DNA of 64,000 nucleotides, from positions 1,280-65,279 of the forward strand of contig JAKAKP010000140.1 in NCBI GenBank assembly GCA_021813445.1, in the 5' to 3' direction. A model generated the notes under the pieces. It ran no database searches. It was not told the DNA's origin and saw nothing but the letters and a program-made list of their open reading frames with translations. Position numbers and translations under genes: made by a program. Positions within the stretch are counted from its first letter, which is position 1. Every line of letters begins with the position of its first letter. Source of the DNA: Deltaproteobacteria bacterium (lineage in GTDB: Bacteria > Desulfobacterota > Desulfobaccia > Desulfobaccales > 0-14-0-80-60-11). Below are positions 6,657 to 21,304 of this stretch, piece by piece.

Positions 6657-8750
6657 TTGCCGAATTATGGAGTGCAAGTTAAGTTGATGTCAGCCACTGA
6701 TGATCTTCGAAAATTTCCCTGGTATTTTATTCTGATATTCTGCATTCTCTCCCTGGGAATACTAACGACGGGATATTTATATTACAAGAACCAGGAGGGG
6801 TACATCAAGAAAGAAAAGCAGCAAGAACTTGCTGCCATTATTGCCCTGAAAGTGGAGCAGATTATCTCCTGGCGCCAGGAACGCCTGGATTATGCCAGCA
6901 CTATTATGGATGACCCCTTTTTCGCCATGCAGGTGATGGATTTTTTCCGGGGGAAACCCAAGCCTCTGCTCCGGAAACAGATTCTGGAGCGGCTGACCAC
7001 CCTGGCCACATATCAATATCGCAGCCTGACTTTAGTCGACCCCCAGGGGCATGTCAGATTGGCGGCGCCGGCCTCAGGGCGGGAGCTTAACCCTTACCTG
7101 CAATCCCTGGCGGCGCAGGCAATCCAGACCCAAAAAGTCATTTTTTCAGATCTGTATCTGGATGAAGACTCGAAGCCCAGGCTCTGCGTCCTCACGCCGC
7201 TCCTGGTCATGCAGGGGGACAAGAAGATTACCGTGGGCGTGACTCTGATGAGCATCGAACCCTATCAGTTTCTTTATCCTCTGTTGAAAGAATGGCCCAC
7301 CCCGAGTCTGACCGGAGAGACCGAGCTGGTCCGCCGGGAGGGCCAGGAAGTGGTGTTTCTCAATGAACTCCGGCATCAGAAGAACGTTCCCCTGCACCTG
7401 CGGTTGCCCCTGGATTCCCCCCACCTGCTGGAGGCCAGGGTCGCCAGGGGGCAAAGAGGCATTGTGGAGGGCCTGGATTATCGGGGAGTGCCGGTTATTG
7501 CCGCGGGAGGAGCCATTCCGGACTCCTCCTGGTTTATCATCGCCAAGATCGACGCCGGCGAAATTTATGCCCCGCTGAAAAAGCTGACCCATGAAGTCGT
7601 TTTTCTCCTGATTATCTTGATCGGCAGCGCCGGCCTCGGTGTGGCCTATTTCTCGCGGAATCAGCAAATCAGCTTCTACCGCCGGCAATATGAAGTGGAG
7701 CGGGAGCGCCGCGCCCTGGCGCAGCGTTATGAGTATCTCACCAGGTTTGCCAATGACATCATCCTGGTGGCGGACAGGAATCTACTGATTGTGGAAGCCA
7801 ACGACCGGGCGGCGGTGGCCTACGGCTATGAGCGCGCTGAACTCCTGAAGCTCCATCTCCTGGATTTATATCCGCCGGGGTCGGAACGGGTTCTGGATAC
7901 CCTGATACTGCATGGCAAAGAAACCAGCGGGCTGATTTTTGAAGCTATTCAACAAAGGAAAGATGGTACGACTTTTCCAGCGGAGGTCAGCCTGCGCCAA
8001 TTGGAGATCGAAGGGGAGGTGTTGTTTCAGGAAATCATCCGGGATATCACTGAGCGCCAACGTACCGAGGAGGTGCTGCAAGAATCGGCCAAGAACCTGC
8101 GCCACCTGGCCTCGCAGCTGCTGCGGGCCCAGGAAGACGAGCGGAAACGAATCTCCCGGGAATTGCATGATCAACTGGGACACGCCTTGCTGGCCTTGAA
8201 GCTGCAGATCGAAGCGGTGGCCACCAAACTGTCTCCGGCCCAGAGTACTCTTAAAACCGAGATGCATAAGATCTTGGGCTACATGGGCACTACCATAGAA
8301 GAGGTGCGCCGCCTTTATCTGGATCTCAGCCCTGGCGACCTGGAGGACTTGGGTCTCACCGCGGCCCTGCAATCGTTGGTGGAGGATTTTGCCGACCTCC
8401 AAAAGCATGCGAAATTTACGCTCGATCTGGATGACCTGGACGGCCTCTTTGCCTTGCCGGTGCAGACCGCGATCTACCGGGTGGTGCAAGAAGCTTTGAC
8501 GAATATCGGCAAACACGCCCAACCGCAGCACGTGTCGCTGCAGATCAAGCGGGACGGGCAAAATGTCTCTTTTCTGATTGCCGACGACGGCAAGGGCTTT
8601 GACCGTCATTCAAACACCGACAAGAAAACCTTGGGCCTCCTGACGATGGCAGAGCGGGTGAGAATCCTGGGGGGCTCTTTTGACTTATGGAGCCAAAAAG
8701 GGCACGGCACCAAGATCTCCTTTACCATTCCCATAACCGGAGAATCATGA
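6657..8750 (+). CDS. Sensor histidine kinase (periplasmic sensor domain, PAS, HisKA_3, HATPase_c; NarX/DegS type)
   Basis: Two TM helices flank a domain of about 270 aa, followed by a PAS domain. H-box RISRELHDQLGHALLALK and ATPase motifs ALTNIGKHA and DDGKGF are present. TTG start at 6657; an alternative ATG (MSATDD) lies at 6687. Confidence 0.9.
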   Translation: MPNYGVQVKLMSATDDLRKFPWYFILIFCILSLGILTTGYLYYKNQEGYIKKEKQQELAAIIALKVEQIISWRQERLDYASTIMDDPFFAMQVMDFFRGKPKPLLRKQILERLTTLATYQYRSLTLVDPQGHVRLAAPASGRELNPYLQSLAAQAIQTQKVIFSDLYLDEDSKPRLCVLTPLLVMQGDKKITVGVTLMSIEPYQFLYPLLKEWPTPSLTGETELVRREGQEVVFLNELRHQKNVPLHLRLPLDSPHLLEARVARGQRGIVEGLDYRGVPVIAAGGAIPDSSWFIIAKIDAGEIYAPLKKLTHEVVFLLIILIGSAGLGVAYFSRNQQISFYRRQYEVERERRALAQRYEYLTRFANDIILVADRNLLIVEANDRAAVAYGYERAELLKLHLLDLYPPGSERVLDTLILHGKETSGLIFEAIQQRKDGTTFPAEVSLRQLEIEGEVLFQEIIRDITERQRTEEVLQESAKNLRHLASQLLRAQEDERKRISRELHDQLGHALLALKLQIEAVATKLSPAQSTLKTEMHKILGYMGTTIEEVRRLYLDLSPGDLEDLGLTAALQSLVEDFADLQKHAKFTLDLDDLDGLFALPVQTAIYRVVQEALTNIGKHAQPQHVSLQIKRDGQNVSFLIADDGKGFDRHSNTDKKTLGLLTMAERVRILGGSFDLWSQKGHGTKISFTIPITGES

Positions 8751-9391
8751 GCATGGCTGGCTATACCATCGTCATCGCCGATGATCACGTGATGTTCCGT
8801 GAAGGAGTTAAACACATTATTGAGCAGAGCCCGGAGGTCTGCATCAGCGGTGAGGCCAATGACGGACTCGAACTGATGGATTTGTTGAAAAAGTCTCCCC
8901 CGGACCTGGTCGTTCTGGACATTTCCATGCCCAATCTGCGCGGCCTGGAAGCCATTAAAGAAATTAAGCGCGGCTACCCCCAGGTAAAAATCCTGGTCTT
9001 GACCATGCACAAAAAAAAGGAGTTCATCCGCCAAGCCCTGGCCGGCGGTGCCGATGGCTATTTGCTCAAGGAAGATGCCGGCGGCGAACTGATTCAGGCG
9101 GTGCAGGCCATCAGAAAAGGCGGCAAATATTTTTCTCCCCTGGTGGCCTCCTTGATGACCAGCCTGGTCCTGGAGCCGGCCAAGGCCGAAATCTTATCAA
9201 TCCGGGAAAGGGAGGTCCTAAAACTCCTGGCGGAAGGGAAAAAAACCGAGGAAATCGCCGCCATTCTGTACATCAGCCCCCATACCGTGCGCCGCCACCG
9301 CGCCAATATCATGGAAAAGCTGGAGATCAACAACTTGGCCGATCTGCTCAAGTATGCCATTTCCCACCACTATCTCGTTGACTTTTCTTAA
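8747..9391 (+). CDS. Response regulator, NarL/LuxR family (REC + LuxR HTH)
   Basis: MSMAGYTIVIADDH...VVLDISMP, with C-terminal LSIREREVLKLLAEGKKTEEIA...TVRRHRANIMEKL. The ATG at 8747 overlaps the kinase stop as ATGA (translational coupling). The ORF-track start at 8687 is an artefactual extension. Confidence 0.9.
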   Translation: MSMAGYTIVIADDHVMFREGVKHIIEQSPEVCISGEANDGLELMDLLKKSPPDLVVLDISMPNLRGLEAIKEIKRGYPQVKILVLTMHKKKEFIRQALAGGADGYLLKEDAGGELIQAVQAIRKGGKYFSPLVASLMTSLVLEPAKAEILSIREREVLKLLAEGKKTEEIAAILYISPHTVRRHRANIMEKLEINNLADLLKYAISHHYLVDFS

Positions 9392-10244: not shown

Positions 10245-10494
10245 TGTCGGTGGTCAGTGGTCAGTAAAAGACAAGGCATACCGGAGGATTTCTCCCTCTC
10301 CCCCCGCCCCAGGAGTCCATTGCTCCTAACCGGCAATTCGCGGGGGGAGAGGGCTGGGGTGAGGGGGGCAAACTTTTCATCCTTTGTGGGTGCGCCTCAG
10401 GCCCATGAGGAGCTGTTACGAAAAGTTCCTATAGGTGGCGCAGGCTTTCCAGCCTGCGCGCCATTGCCGGGCGGGCGAGGACGCCGCCCCTACG
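10245..10494. repeat. Cluster of several short palindromic repeat elements
   Basis: Contains GGTCAGTGGTCAGT. Also contains CCCTCTCCCC...GGGGGGAGAGGGCTGGGGTGAGGGGGG. GGTGGCGCAGGCTTTCCAGCCTGCGCGCC is related to 29844 and 45531. ...CGCCGCCCCTACGA is related to the family B cores. Confidence 0.5.
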
Positions 10495-10566
10495 ATTCTT
10501 TTCATAATTTATGGGCGGGCCATAGGCCCTTCGGCCGTACCCCCGGGAAATGGGGAGAGAATAACC

Positions 10567-11316
10567 ATGCATCCCTATAAGATCGTCCTGGCCGATGATC
10601 ACACGATATTTCGGCAAAGCGTCAGGAGAGTGGTGGAAGAGGTCCCCGGCCTGGAGATCGTGGGAGAGGCCGCCAGTGGGCATGAATTGTTGCTGCTTCT
10701 GCAACAGACTTCTCCCCAGTTGGTTATTCTTGATCTTTCCATGCCGGATTATGGAGGCATGGCAGCCCTTAAAGAAATGAAACGCCCCCATCCCCGGGTT
10801 AAGGTGTTAATCTTAAGCATGCACAAAACCCGGGGACATGTTTATCGGGCAATATCCATGCAGGTTCAAGGATACCTGCTCAAAGAAGATACTCATGAGG
10901 AACTGATTGCCGCGATAAAGCTAATCCGGAGTGGCGGCACCTATTTTTCGCCGCTATTGGCCGGACAGATTTCCGAGATCAACGTAAAAAAGCGCCTCAG
11001 GGATTTGCTATTTCAAGAAGATCCTTTGAGTAACCGGGAAGCGCAAATCCTTAGTTTTTTGGCGGAAGGCAAAACCAGCCAACAAATCGCGGACCTTCTA
11101 TCTCTCAGCATCAAAACCGTAAATACCCATCGCCTGAAGATCAAAAGAAAGTTGGACCTTGGGAAATCCATTGAGTTGATAAAATACGCCATTCTCAAAG
11201 GATACATCATGGTGGACCCCGTTGAATTCCCGGAAGCATTAAACAATCCACCTGCGGTTAACGAAAGGTCTTCTCCGAAAAACTCAGAAGTTACCAGTAA
11301 AACCTCCTCAGGTTGA
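10567..11316 (+). CDS. Orphan response regulator, NarL/LuxR family, with a C-terminal tail of about 35 aa
   Basis: MHPYKIVLADDH...LVILDLSMP, LuxR HTH LSNREAQILSFLAEGKTSQQIA. ATG at 10567; the upstream part of the track ORF runs through repeats. Confidence 0.85.
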   Translation: MHPYKIVLADDHTIFRQSVRRVVEEVPGLEIVGEAASGHELLLLLQQTSPQLVILDLSMPDYGGMAALKEMKRPHPRVKVLILSMHKTRGHVYRAISMQVQGYLLKEDTHEELIAAIKLIRSGGTYFSPLLAGQISEINVKKRLRDLLFQEDPLSNREAQILSFLAEGKTSQQIADLLSLSIKTVNTHRLKIKRKLDLGKSIELIKYAILKGYIMVDPVEFPEALNNPPAVNERSSPKNSEVTSKTSSG

Positions 11317-14323: not shown

Positions 14324-15091
14324 TTACAAACCCTTTTTCTTCCAGTTGCGGGTCACATTGGTCAGGAAAAATTCTTTAACCAGACGGCGCCAGCCAAGCT
14401 GCGGAAAATGGCCATAGACATCGCCGACGAGCGCGCCGCCGGACGGCAAGGTTAATCCCACCGTGGTTTCCATGAGGTTCAGCAAGCGCCAGGATTCTTT
14501 GGCAATCCAGGCCTCGTTATTCTCTTTGGAAGAGAGGCTGGCCAAATTCTGCCGGAGATTGGTCGGTTTGACCTTGAACAGCCAGCCTTCGCCATAGGGA
14601 TCGCGATGGAGCAGACGGGGATTCTGACAAACCTCGGGATTGACTGCCGTGACTAGACCGTCCACCGGAGCCTCAAAGGAAGCCTTGTGCTCCTTTTTGA
14701 TCAGAGCCATGCAGATGTGATCCTGAAAAAAGACTGCGCCCACTTCGGGTAATCTCAGGGCGTCAGCCGGACCCAGTATCTTCTGGGAAAAGTCATCCAG
14801 CCCCACCCGCACTTCGCCGCTCTCTTCGAGCGCTACCCAGGCGTGGCCCCGGTGCAGATAATAGTCCTCGGGAGGGGCTTGTACCCCGAGGGCTTCCACC
14901 ATCCCCGGTTCAGGGTGGGGTTCGGGGGCTGGGCCACCTTCTTTCAGAGGGTGGTGGTCTACCCGCCAGACTGCCCCACATTTTTGACACACGCACTTAT
15001 ACTCTGACTGGGTGCCGTTCTTAGGGCCAGGAACCTCACAGACCAGCCAATGCCCGGCCATGGCCCCGCAATTCTTACAATCGAGTCTCAT
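14324..15091 (-). CDS. Zinc-ribbon / GcvH-fold protein with conserved C-terminal extension (paralog 1)
   Basis: N-terminal CKNCG...CQKCG ribbon. The core YYLHRGHAWV..VRVGLDDFSQKILGPADALRLPEVG...APVDGLVTAVN...DPYGEGWLFKV aligns with glycine-cleavage H proteins. An extra tail of about 80 aa ends in WKKK. RBS GGAGG. Confidence 0.8.
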   Translation of the reverse strand: MRLDCKNCGAMAGHWLVCEVPGPKNGTQSEYKCVCQKCGAVWRVDHHPLKEGGPAPEPHPEPGMVEALGVQAPPEDYYLHRGHAWVALEESGEVRVGLDDFSQKILGPADALRLPEVGAVFFQDHICMALIKKEHKASFEAPVDGLVTAVNPEVCQNPRLLHRDPYGEGWLFKVKPTNLRQNLASLSSKENNEAWIAKESWRLLNLMETTVGLTLPSGGALVGDVYGHFPQLGWRRLVKEFFLTNVTRNWKKKGL

Positions 15092-15811: not shown

Positions 15812-16559
15812 TCAGGATTTTTTCTTCCATTCCCGGGTCAGGCTGGTGAGAAGAAACTCCTGGACCAGGGGCCGCCAGCCCAACTGGGGATAATTTCCAT
15901 AGACGTCATCAATAATGGTGCCGCCATCCGGCCCGGTGACTCCCACTTCGCTTTCCATGAGATTGATTAAGCGATGGGACTCCTGATGCATCCAATCGGC
16001 CGTGGCGTCTCCGGAAAACAGGTTGGTCAAATTGCGCTGGAGGTTGATGGGCCAGACCTTGAACAGCCAGCCGGCGCCAAAAGGATCGTTATGGATCAGG
16101 CGGGGATTCTCACGCACCTTGGGATTGATTGCCGTAATGGCGCCATCCACCGGGGCGAGAAAGGAAGCCTTCCGGCCCTGTCTGACCAGGGAGAGGCAGA
16201 TGTGATCCTGATAGTACGTCTTGCCGAGATCTGGCAGCTTCACCTCGTCTGCGGGCCCGAAGATCTTCTGGGAAAAGGCGTCCAGTCCCACCCTCACTTC
16301 GCCGGTGTCTTCGAGCACGGCCCAGCTATGTCCCGGGTGCAGGTAACAGTCACTGGCGGGCACTCCAAAACCGAAGATTTCCACTTCCTGGTTATTCCTG
16401 CTCTTCATGTCTGCCATTCCTTCCTTAAAAAGGTTGTGTTTTTCGATGAACCAGGTTCTTCCCACATTTGCGGCAGATGCACTTGCCGAGGGGTTTAGTT
16501 TTGTCGTGATAAAAGATCTCACTCCGCCAAGGCCCGCATCTTTTGCAAAGGATTTCCAT
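15812..16559 (-). pseudogene. Zinc-ribbon / GcvH-fold paralog 3, split by a 1-nt frameshift (or two coupled ORFs)
   Basis: A 44-aa ribbon ORF (MEILCKRCG...CRKCGKNLVHRKTQPF*, 16559-16425) is followed by the GcvH-fold body in another frame. The frame of the body upstream of its first Met reads GRTWFIEKHNLFKEG, homologous to paralog 1 AVWRVDHHPLKEGG. AGGAGG RBS precedes 16559. Confidence 0.7.
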
Positions 16560-16656
16560 GCAACTGTCCTCCTGTAGGACTTGAGGTTTGCGGCTTTCCC
16601 ATCTCCTCTCCGTCATCTTTGCCAGGAATGTCTCATCCGCAGCCCAGCTTCCTTTA

Positions 16657-16673
16657 GGCAAATTACGGGCCAA
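16657..16673 (-). promoter_or_regulatory. Sigma-54 (-24/-12) promoter candidate for the GcvH-like/flavoprotein operon
   Basis: The minus strand reads TTGGCCCGTAATTTGCC, against the consensus TGGCACG-N4-TTGCW. GG and GC are separated by exactly 10 nt. It lies about 100 nt upstream of the ATG at 16559. Confidence 0.6.
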
Positions 16674-16833
16674 ACCTGCGATGCCAGGGTAACCATCTAT
16701 AATTACAGCAATATTTATGATCACTCCCCATGCTTTCCCATCATCCGCCAGCGGCAAGGCGAGGTTTTGGTGAAAATTCGCACAGAGGCTCGGCTAAAAT
16801 TCGCTAACCCATTGATAATTATGGATGATTATT

Positions 16834-16850
16834 TGTACGAAAATCGCACA
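16834..16850. promoter_or_regulatory. 17-bp imperfect palindrome TGTACGAAAATCGCACA (putative activator-binding UAS, copy 1)
   Basis: TGTACGA-N3-TCGCACA. The 20-nt core GTACGAAAATCGCACAAAGA is identical to copy 2. It lies about 165 nt upstream of the sigma-54 promoter. Confidence 0.5.
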
Positions 16851-16908
16851 AAGATAGGAGGTAAGATGCCCGAATAAGGGTATCATATTGTTTTGATTAA
16901 TTATTAAT

Positions 16909-16925
16909 CGTACGAAAATCGCACA
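16909..16925. promoter_or_regulatory. Palindrome CGTACGAAAATCGCACA (putative UAS, copy 2)
   Basis: Exact 20-nt repeat of copy 1, 75 nt further upstream. Confidence 0.5.
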
Positions 16926-16993
16926 AAGAAGATTGGAGCGAGCCTGAGAACGGGCGTGAGCCGGGTCTTAGTGACAGTGGAGAGGCGGGGTGG

Positions 16994-17599
16994 TTACAGG
17001 TCTTGGAGGCTTTGAAAGTAATCGTCCAGCAGGATCAGACAATATTTGCACAGTCCGGTTTTCTTTTGGTCCAATTTTTCCAGGTTGGCGGCAAAGCCCA
17101 TGAGACAGCCGTCTTGGCGGCAGTGGGGGAGGCCGAAGGTATGGCCCAATTCATGTAAGCTTAACTTGATGAGCCGGCTTAATAAGAGGGATCTGGACGG
17201 TTTGACTTCCCCGGCGCCGGCGCCGGGACGAAAGGTTGAAATAATGGCGGCTTTGCCGTCCAACTGGGCCTCGCCAAAGACAAAAGTGAATATGGGAATG
17301 TAAAGATCCGCCGCGGTTATCCCCAGGATTCGAAAAGGATCTTCTCCGTGCTCGTCATTGAGCAGATAATCCAGGAGTTGGGTGGAATAATACTGATTAC
17401 GCCCTGGGTGATGGGTCTGGGGGGGCAGAGGTCTGGTGGGCAAAATCTTTACCGGCAGGAAAAGAAAATCGGCAATGGCCTGGCGTAAATCAGGCAAGAT
17501 CAGGTGATCCACCGGGGCCAGGGGAACCAGGCCCAGAAACGGACGGTATGACATATAGTGAACCGCTCTACAGCCCGGAAGCCGCAGGCTGAGCCCCAA
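16994..17599 (-). CDS. Archaemetzincin-family zinc metalloprotease (Amz-like)
   Basis: HELGHTFGLPHCRQDGCLM...CKYC matches the archaemetzincin signature HExxHxxGx3Cx4CxM...CxxC. The TTG start abuts the regulator stop; an alternative ATG lies at 17554. Confidence 0.85.
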   Translation of the reverse strand: MGLSLRLPGCRAVHYMSYRPFLGLVPLAPVDHLILPDLRQAIADFLFLPVKILPTRPLPPQTHHPGRNQYYSTQLLDYLLNDEHGEDPFRILGITAADLYIPIFTFVFGEAQLDGKAAIISTFRPGAGAGEVKPSRSLLLSRLIKLSLHELGHTFGLPHCRQDGCLMGFAANLEKLDQKKTGLCKYCLILLDDYFQSLQDL

Positions 17600-18949
17600 T
17601 CAGGGCGTTAAGCCATACTTTTTCATTTTTTCATAGAGAGTGCCGCGATTGATCCGAAGGACCTTGGCCGTATTGGAGATGTGACCACCCTGTGCGGTCA
17701 GGACTAAAGCGATGTGGCGGCGCTCCATTTCCCCCAAGGAGAGGTTGGCCACTTCCTCGGTGCCCTCCGAAGTCAGCGCGAAGGGCAGGTCACCGGGTTT
17801 GATCTGCCGGCCTTTGCCCACCACCACCGCCCGTTCGATGGCGTTTTGCAATTCCCGGATGTTTCCCGGCCAGGAATAACGCCGCATCGCCGCCAGAGAC
17901 TCCAGATGAATGCCATCAATCTTTTTGCCGGTCTCGGTGGCATAGCGTCGCAGGAAGTGCTTGGCCAGCAGGGGAATATCTTCCTGCCGCTCCCGCAAGG
18001 GAGGGACCTGCAAGTGAATGACGTTGAGGCGGTAGTAGAGATCCTGGCGGAAAGTCCGGTTGCGGATGCTTTCCTGCAGGTCCTGATGCGTGGCGGCAAT
18101 GACCCGGAAGTCGCTGGTGATCGCCGTGGTTCCTCCAACCCGGCTGAATTCGTGGGTTTCCAAGACTCGCAGAAGATCGATCTGCATCTTCATGGAGATG
18201 TCCCCCACTTCATCCAGAAAGAGGGTGCCGGTATTGGCCATTTCCAACCGGCCTTTCTTGGTGAATTTGGCATCGGTGAAGGCGCCTTTCTCGTGGCCGA
18301 AGAGCTCGCTCTCCAGGAGATGTTCCGTAAAGGCGCCGCAGTTGATGGCAATGAAGGGATTGTAACCGCGAGGGCTATGGGTGTGAATGGTCCGGGCCAC
18401 CAACTCCTTGCCGGTGCCGGTCTCCCCGGTAATCAACACGGTGGCGTCGCTTTGGGCCACCTTGACGATGGTCTCAAAAAGACTGAGCATCGGGGGGGAT
18501 TGGCCCACCAGGTTGTCAAAGCGGCTGATGGACGCTATCTGGTCCTTGAGAATCAAGTTTTCCATGGCCAGGGTCTGAATTTGCACCAGTTTCTCGATGG
18601 TGAGGCTGAGCTCATCCAACTCGAAAGGCTTCAGGAGATAATCGTTGGCCCCCAGCTTCATGGCCTCCACCGCGTCCTGAATGGCGCCGTGGGCCGTCAT
18701 CATCACTACAGAGGAATCGGGATCTTCCTCTTTCAGTTTCTTGAGCAGGGTGATCCCATCCATTCCCGGCATTTTGACGTCCACCAGCATGATGTCGTAG
18801 TGGCGTTCTTTGACCTTGGCCAGGGCCTCCAGGCCGCCGGCCGCAGTTTCCACCTCATAGCCATCCTGCTTTAGCCAATCACAGAAGGCTTCCCTGATGC
18901 TCAACTCATCATCCACTACCATGATGCAGATTTTTTTATGAGGCAACAT
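17600..18949 (-). CDS. Sigma-54-dependent response regulator (NtrC family: REC, AAA+, Fis-type HTH)
   Basis: REC (MVVDDE...MLVDVKMPGMDG), Walker A GETGTGKE, sigma-54 contact loop ESELFGHEKGAFTDA and a C-terminal HTH ...NTAKVLRINRGTLYEKMKKYG. The ATG at 18949 (MLPHKK) overlaps the kinase 3' end by 14 nt. Confidence 0.95.
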   Translation of the reverse strand: MLPHKKICIMVVDDELSIREAFCDWLKQDGYEVETAAGGLEALAKVKERHYDIMLVDVKMPGMDGITLLKKLKEEDPDSSVVMMTAHGAIQDAVEAMKLGANDYLLKPFELDELSLTIEKLVQIQTLAMENLILKDQIASISRFDNLVGQSPPMLSLFETIVKVAQSDATVLITGETGTGKELVARTIHTHSPRGYNPFIAINCGAFTEHLLESELFGHEKGAFTDAKFTKKGRLEMANTGTLFLDEVGDISMKMQIDLLRVLETHEFSRVGGTTAITSDFRVIAATHQDLQESIRNRTFRQDLYYRLNVIHLQVPPLRERQEDIPLLAKHFLRRYATETGKKIDGIHLESLAAMRRYSWPGNIRELQNAIERAVVVGKGRQIKPGDLPFALTSEGTEEVANLSLGEMERRHIALVLTAQGGHISNTAKVLRINRGTLYEKMKKYGLTP

Positions 18950-21227
18950 GGTCTTCCCCCGATTTTTGGGCGGGCAGACGTATGCTGAAGCAAGTACCCC
19001 GCCCCACCACACTGTGAACTCGAATGACCCCCTGGTGGTCCCCGATTATGCCCTGCACCACGGCCAGACCCAGCCCCGCGCCCAGGCCACCCGGCTTGGT
19101 GGTATAGAAGGGTTCAAAAATCTGGGCAAACTTGTCTCGGGGTATGCCCCCGCCGGTGTCGGCGATGAGCACCAGGGCCTCCCGATGTCTGGTATTTCTG
19201 GTGACAACGGTTAAGGTGCCCTCTTTGGGCATGGCATCCCGGGCATTGATCAGCAGGTTCAAAAAGACCTGCTTCATCTTCGCCGGATCGGCCCGCACCG
19301 GCAAGAGATCGGGAGCATAACGCGTTTCCACCGTGATTCCTTGCAACCGCATCTGGAATTCGGTTAACGCTAAAGTCTCCCCCAATAAGTTGTTGAGATC
19401 CACCGCCTTGAATTCCGGCTTGGCGCGGCGGGAAAAAGGCAGCAAGCTGGAAACGGTTTTGCTCACCCGTAATATTTCTTTGTAGATCAACTCCGTATGT
19501 TTTTTCATCATGCCCATGGCCTCCTGGTCGGGAGACTCCGCATCCATGATGCGTTTGATCATCCTGGCGGAACTGAGAATACCGGTCAACGGATTGTTGA
19601 TCTCGTGGACGACGCTGGCGGATAATTTTCCCAAAGAGGCGATCTTGTCTTCGTCCATCATGCGGGTGCGGCTGATTTCATGGGTGATATCCCGGGACAG
19701 ATCGACCACTCCCCGGATTTGTCCTTCCTCATCGAACAGCGGGTGGCAAACCACGTGTAGATAACTTTCCCGGCCATCCTTGTCAAAGTGGATGTGGATG
19801 GCGGAAGCGGCCTTGCCGGTGGCTACGGTCTTTTTTAAGGGACAGGGATGGTCAGGGCTGGAGCAAGGCTGCTGCGAGCGGTGGGATACTTCATAACAAT
19901 GCCGCCCCACCACGTCTTCGCGTTTTAGACCTATCATTTCCAGCAGCGCCCGGTTGACCTCGACAATGCGATAATCGAGATCAATGACCATCATATGGTC
20001 CTTGATGCCGTTGACGATGGTTTCCAGAAAGGCCTTCTCCTTGATGGCCTGCCGCAGCAGCTCCCGGGTTTCGGCTTGCGATCTTTGCAGAGCTTCTTCC
20101 AACTGCTTCCGGGCGGTAATGTCCGTGATGACCTCCACCACCCGTTTTTGGGTGGCTTCCGGAGGGAATAAAGGCGACATGGTGATTTCGTCGACCCGTA
20201 TCATTCCCTCGGGACTGGCATGCCACTGACAGACCTGGACGGTTTCGCAGTTTTCGAGGACGCGGGGCATAGGACAGGTCAAGCCTTTCCGGTCACAAGG
20301 CTCATCGATCTGATGCAGCACCTCATAACAAGGCCTGCCGATAACCTCTTCCAACTTTTTTTCAAAGCGGGCCAAGAAGGTGCGATTGGCTTCATCCACT
20401 ACATAATTGGGGAGTAAGACGAGCACCGGATCAGGCAGGTGGTCAAAAATCTTTTGGAACCGGCTGCGCTGTCCGGCCAGCTTAATTTCGCTTTCCACCT
20501 TGCAGCGCAGACGGTCTCCATTCCTCTGCAACAATTCCCAGAAAAGCCGGGCCTTAATATGATCGATAATCTGGGTGTGGGGGTGCCGGCGCTGGATAAT
20601 GCCCTCCCGCACCAGCGGGTCGCCGGTAAGTTCCAGGATCAAGTCCGGGGCCTTTTCCAGCAAAGAGGAATAGTCGCTAAAGGTGGAGATGCCCAGACGC
20701 TCAGCCAAGGCTAACCCCGGGGCCCGGGAATTGGAATCAGCCACCCCGACAATCTCGATCTTGCGCCGGTATCCCGGCTTCCTGGTGATCAGCTGCAGCA
20801 CCTCTTGACCTGCCCTGCCAGCGCCGACAATGGCGATTTTCAAGGGAGAGACGTCCTGAATCGACAGGTCCACAGGAATGAGGTCCCAAAAGGCCTCCAG
20901 AGTAAATTCCGGCCGGTCCGCACTCAGAACCGTTAACCGTTTGGGAGCTTGCTCATAAAGCTGTTGAGCTACTTCGGGACGCCCAGTGGCGTCGACAATG
21001 ATGTCCACTTCCGGGAGATGGAATAAGTCAGCCAGATCCAGGGTCACAAAGAGGTTAAAGCGATAGGCATAGATTATCCCGGGAGCTTCCGGGTTAATGT
21101 CCGCCACCGCCACGATCCGCAAGGATTGCTCTTGTTTTCGGGGAGGCACCAAGGCTTCCAGGATCGCCATGCCTTGCCGCCCCGCGCCGACAATAGCCAG
21201 GTTATATGACTTTTTGTCAGGATTCAT
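18936..21227 (-). CDS. Histidine kinase with two N-terminal Rossmann-like modules and two Cys-rich PAS domains
   Basis: YNLAIVGAGRQG and LKIAIVGAGRAG (GxGxxG) lie in two modules of about 130 aa. Two PAS domains each carry CYEVxH-x5-PC-x6/7-CP. H-box SASVVHEINNPLTGI, then HATPase (DTGGGIP, GLGAGLGLAVV). Start MNPDKK at 21227. Confidence 0.9.
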   Translation of the reverse strand: MNPDKKSYNLAIVGAGRQGMAILEALVPPRKQEQSLRIVAVADINPEAPGIIYAYRFNLFVTLDLADLFHLPEVDIIVDATGRPEVAQQLYEQAPKRLTVLSADRPEFTLEAFWDLIPVDLSIQDVSPLKIAIVGAGRAGQEVLQLITRKPGYRRKIEIVGVADSNSRAPGLALAERLGISTFSDYSSLLEKAPDLILELTGDPLVREGIIQRRHPHTQIIDHIKARLFWELLQRNGDRLRCKVESEIKLAGQRSRFQKIFDHLPDPVLVLLPNYVVDEANRTFLARFEKKLEEVIGRPCYEVLHQIDEPCDRKGLTCPMPRVLENCETVQVCQWHASPEGMIRVDEITMSPLFPPEATQKRVVEVITDITARKQLEEALQRSQAETRELLRQAIKEKAFLETIVNGIKDHMMVIDLDYRIVEVNRALLEMIGLKREDVVGRHCYEVSHRSQQPCSSPDHPCPLKKTVATGKAASAIHIHFDKDGRESYLHVVCHPLFDEEGQIRGVVDLSRDITHEISRTRMMDEDKIASLGKLSASVVHEINNPLTGILSSARMIKRIMDAESPDQEAMGMMKKHTELIYKEILRVSKTVSSLLPFSRRAKPEFKAVDLNNLLGETLALTEFQMRLQGITVETRYAPDLLPVRADPAKMKQVFLNLLINARDAMPKEGTLTVVTRNTRHREALVLIADTGGGIPRDKFAQIFEPFYTTKPGGLGAGLGLAVVQGIIGDHQGVIRVHSVVGRGTCFSIRLPAQKSGEDHVAS

Positions 21228-21287: not shown

Positions 21288-21304
21288 TGTACGATAATCG
21301 CACA
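21288..21304. promoter_or_regulatory. Palindrome TGTACGATAATCGCACA (copy 3 of the UAS-like motif) upstream of the kinase gene
   Basis: 16/17 identical to copy 1, 61 nt upstream of the kinase ATG. Confidence 0.45.

Follow-up and report, generated by a model that had tools for sequence, protein, structure and literature searches.

A predicted composite enhancer and sigma-54 promoter upstream of a GcvH-like/sulfide:quinone reductase operon in Desulfobaccales

Organization of the locus

The DNA considered here is a stretch of 64,000 nt (the window) from contig JAKAKP010000140.1 of a bacterium of the order Desulfobaccales, in which two neighboring gene sets are carried on the minus strand. The first encodes a sensor histidine kinase, an NtrC-type activator and an archaemetzincin-like peptidase of family M54, and the second a zinc-ribbon protein, three GcvH-like proteins, a sulfide:quinone reductase (SQR) of type III and a DUF1641 protein. 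The M54 gene and the second operon are separated by an intergenic region of 434 bp (16993-16560). This region is best read as a composite enhancer with a sigma-54 promoter that would drive the six-gene operon once switched on by the neighboring two-component activator, a reading to which a probability of about 80% can be given on the strength of comparative sequence analysis. A literature search for the gene set (GcvH-like, DUF1641, type III SQR, Desulfobacca) found no paper.

The comparison covered about 50 related Desulfobaccales loci, labelled L001 and onward. A scan of species-representative genomes with the activator as query supplied about 46 of the Desulfobaccales loci, with activators 70-88% identical, and closer relatives were added by contig look-ups; two alignments of close relatives were prepared, A1 and A2, the latter of six sequences. 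Palindromes were sought in the window as TGTRCGANNNTCGYACA with at most two mismatches, against 100 shuffles, and in 597 kb of related loci as the relaxed pattern TGT-N11-ACA with at least 5 of 7 paired positions. Promoters were sought as GG-N10-GC plus at least 5 of 7 further consensus bases, up to 450 bp upstream of GcvH-like gene runs (n = 54). Sites resembling those of integration host factor (IHF) were sought in 33 promoters, both with at most one mismatch to WATCAANNNNTTR (background 2.9e-4 per position) and with a weight matrix built from the sites within the enhancers and compared with shuffles (95th percentile, 3.8).

The features are collected in Table 1. When both strands were read directly, each sequence listed in an initial annotation of this DNA was found where it had been placed, including the GG-N10-GC element, the IHF match, the palindromes and the 61-nt distance between one of these and the kinase start codon.

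Table 1. Regulatory elements and genes of the locus (UAS, upstream activator sequence; negative values are positions relative to the predicted transcription start)
Feature	Position	Strand	Sequence	Remarks
Predicted sigma-54 -24/-12 promoter	16673-16657	-	TTGGCCCGTAATTTGCC	GG at 16671/16670 (-25/-24), GC at 16659/16658 (-13/-12)
Second IHF-like, A/T-rich element	16684-16708	-	CTGTAATTATAGATGGTTACCCTGG / gtaattatagatggtta	centered at about -50, the classical IHF position
UAS3, candidate proximal activator site	16768-16784		TGGTGAAAATTCGCACA; minus strand TGTGCGAATTTTCACCA	centered at -130; left half intact, right half degenerate
IHF-like site	16817-16805	-	TATCAATGGGTTA	centered at -165; UAS1 31 bp upstream, UAS3 35 bp downstream
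UAS1, candidate activator site	16834-16850		TGTACGAAAATCGCACA; minus strand TGTGCGATTTTCGTACA	centered at -196; extended as TTTGT...ACAAA
Weak IHF-like match	16886-16898	-	AATCAAAACAATA	one mismatch; centered at about -246, between UAS2 and UAS1
UAS2, candidate distal activator site	16909-16925		CGTACGAAAATCGCACA; minus strand TGTGCGATTTTCGTACG	centered at -271
Third window palindrome	21288-21304		TGTACGATAATCGCACA; minus strand TGTGCGATTATCGTACA	61 nt upstream of kinase ATG; putative autoregulatory operator
Putative sigma-70-type extended -10	21337-21329	-	TGtTAAGCT	would place the palindrome at about +19 to +35
Sensor histidine kinase	18936..21227	-		Pfam; start codon at 21227 matches orthologue starts (atgagtcc...)
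NtrC-type enhancer-binding protein	17600..18949	-		REC, AAA+ sigma-54 interaction domain, HTH_8 (Pfam)
Archaemetzincin-like peptidase M54	16994..17599	-		Pfam PF07998, 7.8e-21; last gene of the kinase-activator operon
Zinc-ribbon open reading frame, 44 aa	16425..16559	-		two CxxC pairs; first gene of the operon; GGAGGA ribosome-binding site upstream
Three tandem GcvH-like genes	16417-15812, 15766-15137, 15091-14324	-		Pfam GCV_H, 2.5e-17 to 4e-21
Type III SQR, 414 aa	14171-12927	-		NCBIfam NF049943, 672.7 bits (cut-off 525); Pfam Pyr_redox_2
DUF1641 protein	12930-12232	-		Pfam DUF1641
Terminator-like hairpin at operon end	12072-12050			9 pairs, 7 of them G-C

Conservation of the promoter and its upstream palindromes

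The core of the promoter, TGGCCCGTAATTTGCC, has the GG-N10-GC spacing of a -24/-12 element, and transcription is predicted to start near 16646, which would leave an 87-nt leader before the ATG at 16559. Across the six closest sequences (A2) the promoter is aligned as TTGGCCC-N5-TTTGC(C/T) between flanks that diverge, and it is found in A1 as well. An upstream GG-N10-GC element of the form TGGCAC/TGGCCC-N5-TTGC is carried by 23 of the 54 GcvH-like gene runs, where 0.056 would be expected per run.

Upstream of this promoter stand three inverted-repeat sites within 80-300 bp of the -24/-12 element, at positions that recur in relatives, and a repeat search places the three copies in register at spacings of 66 and 75 bp. 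UAS1 and UAS2 share an identical 20-nt core, GTACGAAAATCGCACAAAGA, as direct reading confirmed. Within the window TGTRCGANNNTCGYACA has three matches against 0.20 expected, a count that 0 of 100 shuffles reach, and all three flank the kinase and activator genes. UAS3, previously called a degenerate copy, proves to be the conserved proximal site of the family, being the positional equivalent of a palindrome found at -130 to -133 in 14 other promoters. A palindrome likewise occurs at -196 to -199 in six further promoters (L001, L003, L005, L008 on both strands, L069), L009 has distal sites at -179 and -189, and the position of UAS2 is also occupied in L001 (-272), L082, L084 and L109.

Over the related loci as a whole, the relaxed scan returned 59 TGT-N11-ACA palindromes. 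About 44 of these lie 90-300 bp upstream of the promoters in question, clustering at -130 to -133 and -196 to -199, and at -98 to -115 in a clade whose activators (71-76% identical) carry the recognition helix R-S-TLY-E; nine more palindromes lie upstream of kinase genes. The strict pattern TGTRCGA-N3-TCGYACA, in contrast, is found in L001 only. Non-conservation of the palindromes was considered and dropped, as the relaxed pattern shows the inner bases to be clade-specific. In the sequences compared, TGTRCGA-N3-TCGYACA is a lineage-specific form, and the family-level motif is TGT-N11-ACA with inner bases that differ by clade.

It might be supposed that these features have no part in regulation and arose by chance or as copies of a dispersed repeat, and several observations do count against a functional reading. 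Two non-core positions of the promoter deviate from the consensus, with TGGCCC in place of TGGCAC as the -24 hexamer and a final C in place of A/T in the -12 element; in addition, the right half of UAS3 is poor in the window, and about 10 related loci have no recognizable promoter at the scan threshold. The sigma-54 and IHF consensus sequences also occur in the window at chance frequency: TGGC-N7-TTGC is found 3 times against 4.5 expected (60 against 40 when one mismatch is allowed), and WATCAANNNNTTR 3 times against 1.3. As neither match is significant in the window alone, the reality of the promoter and of the IHF-like site rests on their conservation in related loci. There, dozens of loci keep the elements in the same positions, spacing and orientation between diverging flanks, and the palindromes are well above expectation in the window itself, with every match beside the system.

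The initial annotation had also raised the possibility that the motif is a dispersed repeat. In the window and in a metagenome collection, the two sets scanned, a repeat of the repetitive extragenic palindrome (REP) type was rejected: the 64 kb hold three copies, all at this system, and the 18-mer core TTTGTGCGATTWTCGTAC gave 23 single metagenome matches on unrelated contigs (G+C 28-68%) with no kinase, activator or GcvH homologue nearby. These matches are at chance level and add no members to the regulon, and the collection lacks the organism of the window. Taken as a whole, an origin of the features by chance or from a repeat is effectively refuted.

Some further features of the intergenic region were assessed and set apart from the regulatory elements. 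Folding of the 87-nt leader gave a z-score of -0.06, with no structure beyond chance, and an Rfam scan of 16300-17100 returned no family and one sub-threshold microRNA match. An exact 11-nt direct repeat, GCTTTCCCATC, is present in the leader (16593-16603) and at about -90 (16732-16742); relatives do not conserve it, and it was put down to chance. Between UAS1 and UAS2, a terminator-like hairpin with a T-run, GATGCCCGAATAAGGGTATC (16865-16884, plus strand), is preceded on the same strand by AGGAGG and a three-codon mini open reading frame, ATG-CCC-GAA-TAA. This hairpin, too, is probably fortuitous, and it is not conserved in relatives. Translation of the 64-kb window in all six frames revealed no RpoN box, a result that holds for this stretch of DNA.

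Recognition of the palindromes by the neighboring activator

The protein encoded beside the operon had been described as an NtrC-type activator, and Pfam upholds that description with the order REC-AAA+(sigma-54)-HTH_8 (Response_reg, 1.8e-34; Sigma54_activat, PF00158, 5.9e-70; HTH_8, 5.7e-11). Its Walker A motif is GETGTGKE and its recognition helix RINRGTLYEKMKK. On these domain assignments, the activator and its partner kinase classify with the NtrC family (group I) of enhancer-binding proteins. One feature sits less well with activity at a sigma-54 promoter, namely the sigma-54 contact loop (residues 222-227), which reads GAFTDA where GAFTGA is canonical. The same loop is found in 111 of 120 homologues, with GSFTDA in 7, and the Asp variant is presumably functional given its coexistence with conserved -24/-12 promoters.

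The helix-turn-helix of the activator aligns without gaps to residues 43-97 of Escherichia coli Fis. Two residues of its recognition helix, in the places occupied by Gly86 and Lys90 in Fis, covary with positions 5-6 of the palindrome half-site. Activators with the helix R-(G/N)-TLY-(E/D), which are those of the window, L001, L081, L082, L084, L109 and L110, are accompanied by the half-site TGTKCGA (CG), with G at position 6 in all 10 scored halves. The helix R-T-TLY-(H/Y) is accompanied by TGTYGAA (GA; A at position 6 in 43 of 54), and R-S-TLY-E by TGTNGGA (GG; G at position 5 in 20 of 20 and at position 6 in 16 of 20), while the half-site is mixed at the one locus with R-S-TLY-H. The palindromes can be tied to the adjacent activator because half-site bases 5-6 change with its recognition-helix residues. 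The strength of this link is reduced by the fact that the covariation classes are also clades, so that independent events are few, roughly four. Even so, the covariation is the best available in-silico evidence, and suggests that the adjacent activator reads the palindromes and activates the downstream operon. Half-sites of the TGT/ACA type, 11 bp apart, are a known motif class of Desulfovibrio enhancer-binding proteins, which are usually encoded beside their targets (PMC4641369; PMC8359166).

The proposal that this activator drives the downstream operon is thereby strengthened, being supported by the conserved positions of the -24/-12 element and the palindromes and by the helix covariation, all at the level of sequence. 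The recognition sequence originally put forward, TGTRCGA-N3-TCGCACA, holds in part: it describes one lineage and not the family, for which TGT-N11-ACA is the appropriate motif.

Recognition by some other regulator, either a paralogous enhancer-binding protein or an unrelated repressor, has to be weighed here. Cross-talk is conceivable in genomes that hold two or three paralogous modules, with activators 72-80% identical and similar TGT-N11-ACA sites. Across four classes, nevertheless, the inner half-site bases vary with the neighboring activator's recognition helix, and the sites and the activator gene are linked whether they are arranged on the same strand, convergently or divergently. The palindromes, moreover, stand at fixed distances from a sigma-54 promoter, and such a promoter needs an enhancer-binding protein. 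A different reader of the palindromes is considered very unlikely.

Single genomes with two or three paralogous activators are represented by L001/L013/L026, L003/L025, L004/L040, L014/L042, L019/L023 and L021/L022. In most of these sets at least one copy lies beside its own GcvH-like genes; L013, L022 and L023 have none in the flank that was fetched. Paralogues that both have detected sites, such as L001 with L026 and L004 with L040, differ in palindrome class. It looks as if these differing classes insulate the paralogous circuits from one another.

IHF-like sites within the enhancer

The IHF-like site centered at -165 has 0 mismatches to WATCAANNNNTTR and an A/T-rich 5' flank (CATAAT). Its bases ATCAA....GTTA form invariant columns in A2 and are among the most invariant blocks of the intergenic region. 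An element ATCAAnnnG(T/A)TA, in the orientation of transcription, is found 32-35 bp upstream of the center of the proximal UAS in 23 of 33 promoters. The initial annotation had allowed that this match could be chance in A/T-rich DNA, which is difficult to reconcile with such conservation. The distal (-196) and proximal (-130) sites are 65-66 bp apart with the IHF-like site between them, and this block moves as one piece with respect to the promoter, its proximal site lying mostly at -131 and otherwise at -123, -114 or -110. The weak match upstream of it has counterparts in the relatives L001, L081, L082 and L084, each with an IHF-like match of at most one mismatch at -240 to -248.

A second IHF-like element, at about -50, had been overlooked. 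In about 20 of 33 promoters the best match to the weight matrix falls at -49/-50, and scores above the 95th percentile of shuffles were obtained for 18 of the 33. Over 13 nt (16693-16705) the element of the window shares 85% identity with the flank of the first IHF-like site (16809-16821), and it is kept in close relatives as ATTATAGATAGTTA. Its score in the window, 2.3 against the shuffle percentile of 3.8, is weak and speaks against it there.

The order of elements is UAS2 (-271), weak IHF-like match (-246), UAS1 (-196), IHF-like site (-165), UAS3 (-130), IHF-like or A/T-rich element (-50) and promoter, so that the order UAS-IHF-promoter given previously needs correction. The strong site lies inside the enhancer, between UAS1 and UAS3, and not between enhancer and promoter, the classical location. 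As far as the sequences allow it to be judged, a conserved IHF-like site between activator sites is the one unusual feature of this system.

Whether IHF itself would occupy the ATCAAnnnG(T/A)TA elements is less certain. They could belong to another nucleoid protein or a co-regulator, or merely be intrinsically bent A/T-rich DNA. Many copies end in ...GATA and not in the ...TTR of E. coli. At Pu, nifH and glnHp2, IHF is not known to lie between the activator sites. Nor does its position in the NorR system resemble the one described here (PMC2831303). Conversely, exact matches to the IHF consensus, uniformly oriented and with A/T-rich DNA on the 5' side, are present in the window, L001, L081, L082 and L084, and the same matrix also detects the -50 site at the classical IHF location. 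In related Desulfovibrio, IHF is required at sigma-54 promoters (PMC8359166). An identity other than IHF is therefore not the favored one, and is judged improbable while keeping an appreciable share of the weight.

A more elaborate architecture can be entertained, in which the enhancer would be a folded nucleoprotein module, coupled with a two-residue/two-base code that insulates the two or three paralogous kinase-activator-GcvH modules of a genome. Dimer sites 65-66 bp apart (75 bp for the third) would each be paired across an IHF-like site fixed between them, and two or three dimers, stacked face to face by IHF-induced U-turns, would nucleate the hexamer. The separate IHF-like site at -50 would then close the loop to the sigma-54 polymerase. 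For recognition, the helix positions equivalent to Fis Gly86 and Lys90 would pair with half-site bases 5-6. This architecture is offered tentatively and, in its full form, is doubtful.

Autoregulation of the kinase-activator operon

The palindrome upstream of the kinase gene equals UAS1 at 16 of 17 positions and, on sequence grounds, is too good to be attributed to chance. It had been taken as a sign that the activator autoregulates its own operon. The quality of the site supports that idea, while its distribution and surroundings alter it: the five closest relatives in which the region is present (L002, L081-L084) lack the site at the aligned position, no sigma-54 promoter accompanies it, and repression, if the site is functional, is the likelier outcome. 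Among the genomes sampled, only that of the window carries it; of three further close activator homologues, P0003 and P0020 lie on contigs that end short of the region preceding the kinase gene, and the contig of P0001 is identical to the window.

A sigma-54 promoter at the kinase gene was considered and rejected. The candidate TGGCATGGTTTGCA (21357-21344, minus strand) has the spacing GG-N8-GC, which to our knowledge sigma-54 does not tolerate, and CTGGCACCAGAGGCG is also wrongly spaced. In about 30 loci, the 320 bp preceding the kinase gene contain no GG-N10-GC. The sequence of L002 aligned to TGGCATGGTTTGCA is TAGCACGGTTTGTA, and TGGCATGGTTTGCA may simply be the -35 region of a sigma-70 promoter of the kinase gene.

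The putative sigma-70-type -10 element of the kinase gene falls in an alignment column that reads TATAAT in L082, TAAAAT in L081, TAATAT in L084 and TGtTAAATT in L002, and in most loci the kinase gene is preceded, at a distance of 90-130 bp, by TGnTAnnAT-like elements. Repression appears likelier than sigma-54 auto-activation because the palindrome lies downstream of this conserved sigma-70-type -10 and no sigma-54 promoter is nearby. In another clade, of eight loci, TGT-N11-ACA overlaps the -10 of the kinase promoter. There is also a precedent in NtrC, which represses its own operon when bound at the sigma-70 promoters glnL and glnAp1. With moderate confidence, the kinase-proximal palindrome is more likely than not to be a lineage-specific operator for negative autoregulation.

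The palindrome could instead be a functionless recent copy, or could serve positive autoregulation, with the activator fed into the enhancer 4.4 kb away or acting on an unrecognized promoter. These alternatives draw on the absence of the site from the five closest relatives, on the sigma-54-like TGGCATGGTTTGCA just upstream of it, and on the provisional nature of the sigma-70 -10, which matches at 3 of 6 positions (TAAGCT) and was not called by a consensus promoter scanner. Set against them are the very low probability that a 17-mer with 16/17 identity to UAS1 would arise by chance within 100 bp of the start of the cognate kinase gene, the spacing of TGGCATGGTTTGCA together with the lack of any GG-N10-GC near the kinase genes, the second clade with its overlapping palindromes, and the precedent of NtrC. 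Taken jointly, the alternatives are somewhat unlikely, and negative autoregulation is retained as the preferred explanation.

Proteins and gene neighborhood

The kinase has, according to Pfam, two N-terminal Rossmann-type NAD-binding domains, two Cys-rich PAS domains, HisKA and HATPase_c. The Rossmann matches are GFO_IDH_MocA, NAD_binding_3 and DapB_N, and each PAS domain carries the Cys-rich motif CYEV.H....PC......CP. This unusual input module suggests redox or cofactor sensing.

The peptidase encoded by the third gene scores 132.6 bits against the NCBIfam archaemetzincin model, below its cut-off of 145 bits. Its gene directly follows that of the activator in 37 of 49 mapped related loci (activator identity at least 56%). 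The linkage extends to relatives 56-60% identical and to one locus from Planctomycetota, making the M54 peptidase a conserved third partner of this two-component system.

The zinc-ribbon reading frame at the head of the operon belongs to no Pfam family and, by tblastn, is conserved in L001 (74%) and L004 (53%). It resembles the CxxC...CxxC N-terminus of the third GcvH-like protein (14324-15091, minus strand), and together with the first GcvH-like gene it looks like a split form of that protein; in some relatives (L081, L109, L110) the first gene is called as a single fused product of 250 aa. With 61-74 bits, the GcvH-like proteins all fall below the NCBIfam cut-off of 117 for true GcvH. Since they have a Pfam GCV_H domain only, at scores under that cut-off, "GcvH-like" is the right label.

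The NCBIfam model passed by the SQR is that of type III, selenoprotein subtype. The reading frame in the window has no in-frame stop and presumably encodes a Cys-type version. Across Desulfobaccales, SQR is linked to the GcvH-like and DUF1641 genes in several arrangements. No internal promoter was seen in the 152-bp gap between the third GcvH-like gene and the SQR gene of the window, and no divergent sigma-54 promoter for the SQR gene in loci of the L006 type.

The kinase-activator pair adjoins GcvH-like genes almost always in the related loci, in same-strand, convergent or divergent arrangements. In L002, whose activator is 87% identical, the GcvH operon, enhancer and promoter have been lost and the regulator is orphaned; at 8950-9200 of that locus the start of the intergenic region is kept and is followed by an unrelated gene on the opposite strand, which makes it uninformative for the enhancer. 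Downstream of the operon in the window, the plus-strand reading frames at 8687-9391 and 10435-11316 encode receiver and LuxR/GerE-type response regulators. In contig L113, which is identical to the window, both are called as genes with Response_reg plus GerE, beside a PAS/HisKA_3 kinase.

Comparison with characterized systems

The arrangement shares with NtrB/NtrC and glnAp2 a two-component kinase, an activator of the order receiver-AAA+-Fis-type helix-turn-helix, and several dimer sites more than 100 bp upstream of -24/-12. In the NtrC system, too, oligomerization is required and the activator represses sigma-70 promoters of its own operon. The NtrC site, in contrast, is TGCACC-N5-GGTGCA, with strong sites about three helical turns apart and no IHF between them, whereas the sites here, TGT-N11-ACA, are separated by 65-75 bp and enclose an IHF-like site. 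The present system also differs in the NAD-binding and PAS domains of its kinase and in a target outside nitrogen metabolism. AtoS/AtoC and ZraS/ZraR are the highest NCBIfam matches and share the domain order and an adjacent target operon, but differ in targets and sensor domains. Because their scores fall below the equivalog cut-offs (AtoC, 483 against 714; ZraR, 427 against 760; ntrC, 437 against 559; AtoS, 285 against 646), the kinase and activator of the window are not orthologues of AtoC, ZraR or NtrC systems.

A likeness in target is offered by FisR of Cupriavidus, which reportedly exerts sigma-54-dependent control over the sqr and pdo genes of sulfide oxidation; the shared element is the SQR in the operon. 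FisR differs in being a one-component sensor without a receiver domain, and in its type of SQR, its binding motif and the accompanying genes, which here are three GcvH-like genes and DUF1641.

In motif, the nearest systems are those of the NifA/nifH type and the classes of Desulfovibrio vulgaris, with TGT...ACA palindromes 100-200 bp upstream of -24/-12 and assistance by IHF (PMC4641369). The NifA site is TGT-N10-ACA and is read by a GAF-domain activator, whereas here the spacer is 11 bp and the activator has a receiver domain. For the D. vulgaris regulome no GcvH-like or SQR target is described, and the terms "glycine cleavage", "GcvH" and "DUF1641" do not occur in the paper (PMC4641369). At norVW, three NorR sites build the active oligomer at one sigma-54 promoter, with participation of IHF; these sites are GT-N7-AC and closely spaced, and the IHF-bound DNA lies between enhancer and transcription start (PMC2831303). 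By these analogies, the present system is closest to NtrBC/glnAp2 in logic, to the NifA-type and Desulfovibrio TGT-N11-ACA classes in motif, and to NorR in its three sites.

Proposed mechanism and significance

The following course of events is proposed from what the sequences show, namely conserved elements in fixed geometry and orientation, the domain content of the proteins, and the covariation of protein and DNA. The kinase would sense a redox- or sulfur-related cue, as its NAD-binding and Cys-rich PAS domains and the SQR of the target operon suggest, and would phosphorylate the adjacent NtrC-type activator. Dimers of the activator would occupy the three TGTKCGA-N3-TCGMACA sites at -271, -196 and -130. 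The IHF-like sites between the UASs, chiefly the strong one at -165, and the A/T-rich element at -50 would bend the DNA, helping the dimers to oligomerize and to reach sigma-54 RNA polymerase at -24/-12. ATP hydrolysis would then open the promoter, with transcription from near 16646. In this lineage, the activator would probably also damp its own operon through the fourth, near-perfect site at the kinase gene.

As a prediction from sequence, the system is a genuine and well-supported, if conventional, sigma-54 regulon with classical enhancer-binding-protein architecture. What could go beyond the routine is the IHF-like site inside the enhancer, with its fixed 65-bp geometry, and the two-residue/two-base code. 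For the Desulfobaccales, the analysis assigns a candidate regulator, motif and promoter to a conserved, uncharacterized gene set (GcvH-like, type III SQR, DUF1641), and so provides a handle for finding the inducing signal, which is most likely redox- or sulfur-related. For enhancer-binding proteins more generally, it offers a compact, testable specificity code for the Fis-type helix-turn-helix, and the geometry of the IHF-like site within the enhancer, if confirmed, would extend the textbook view of IHF in sigma-54 activation.

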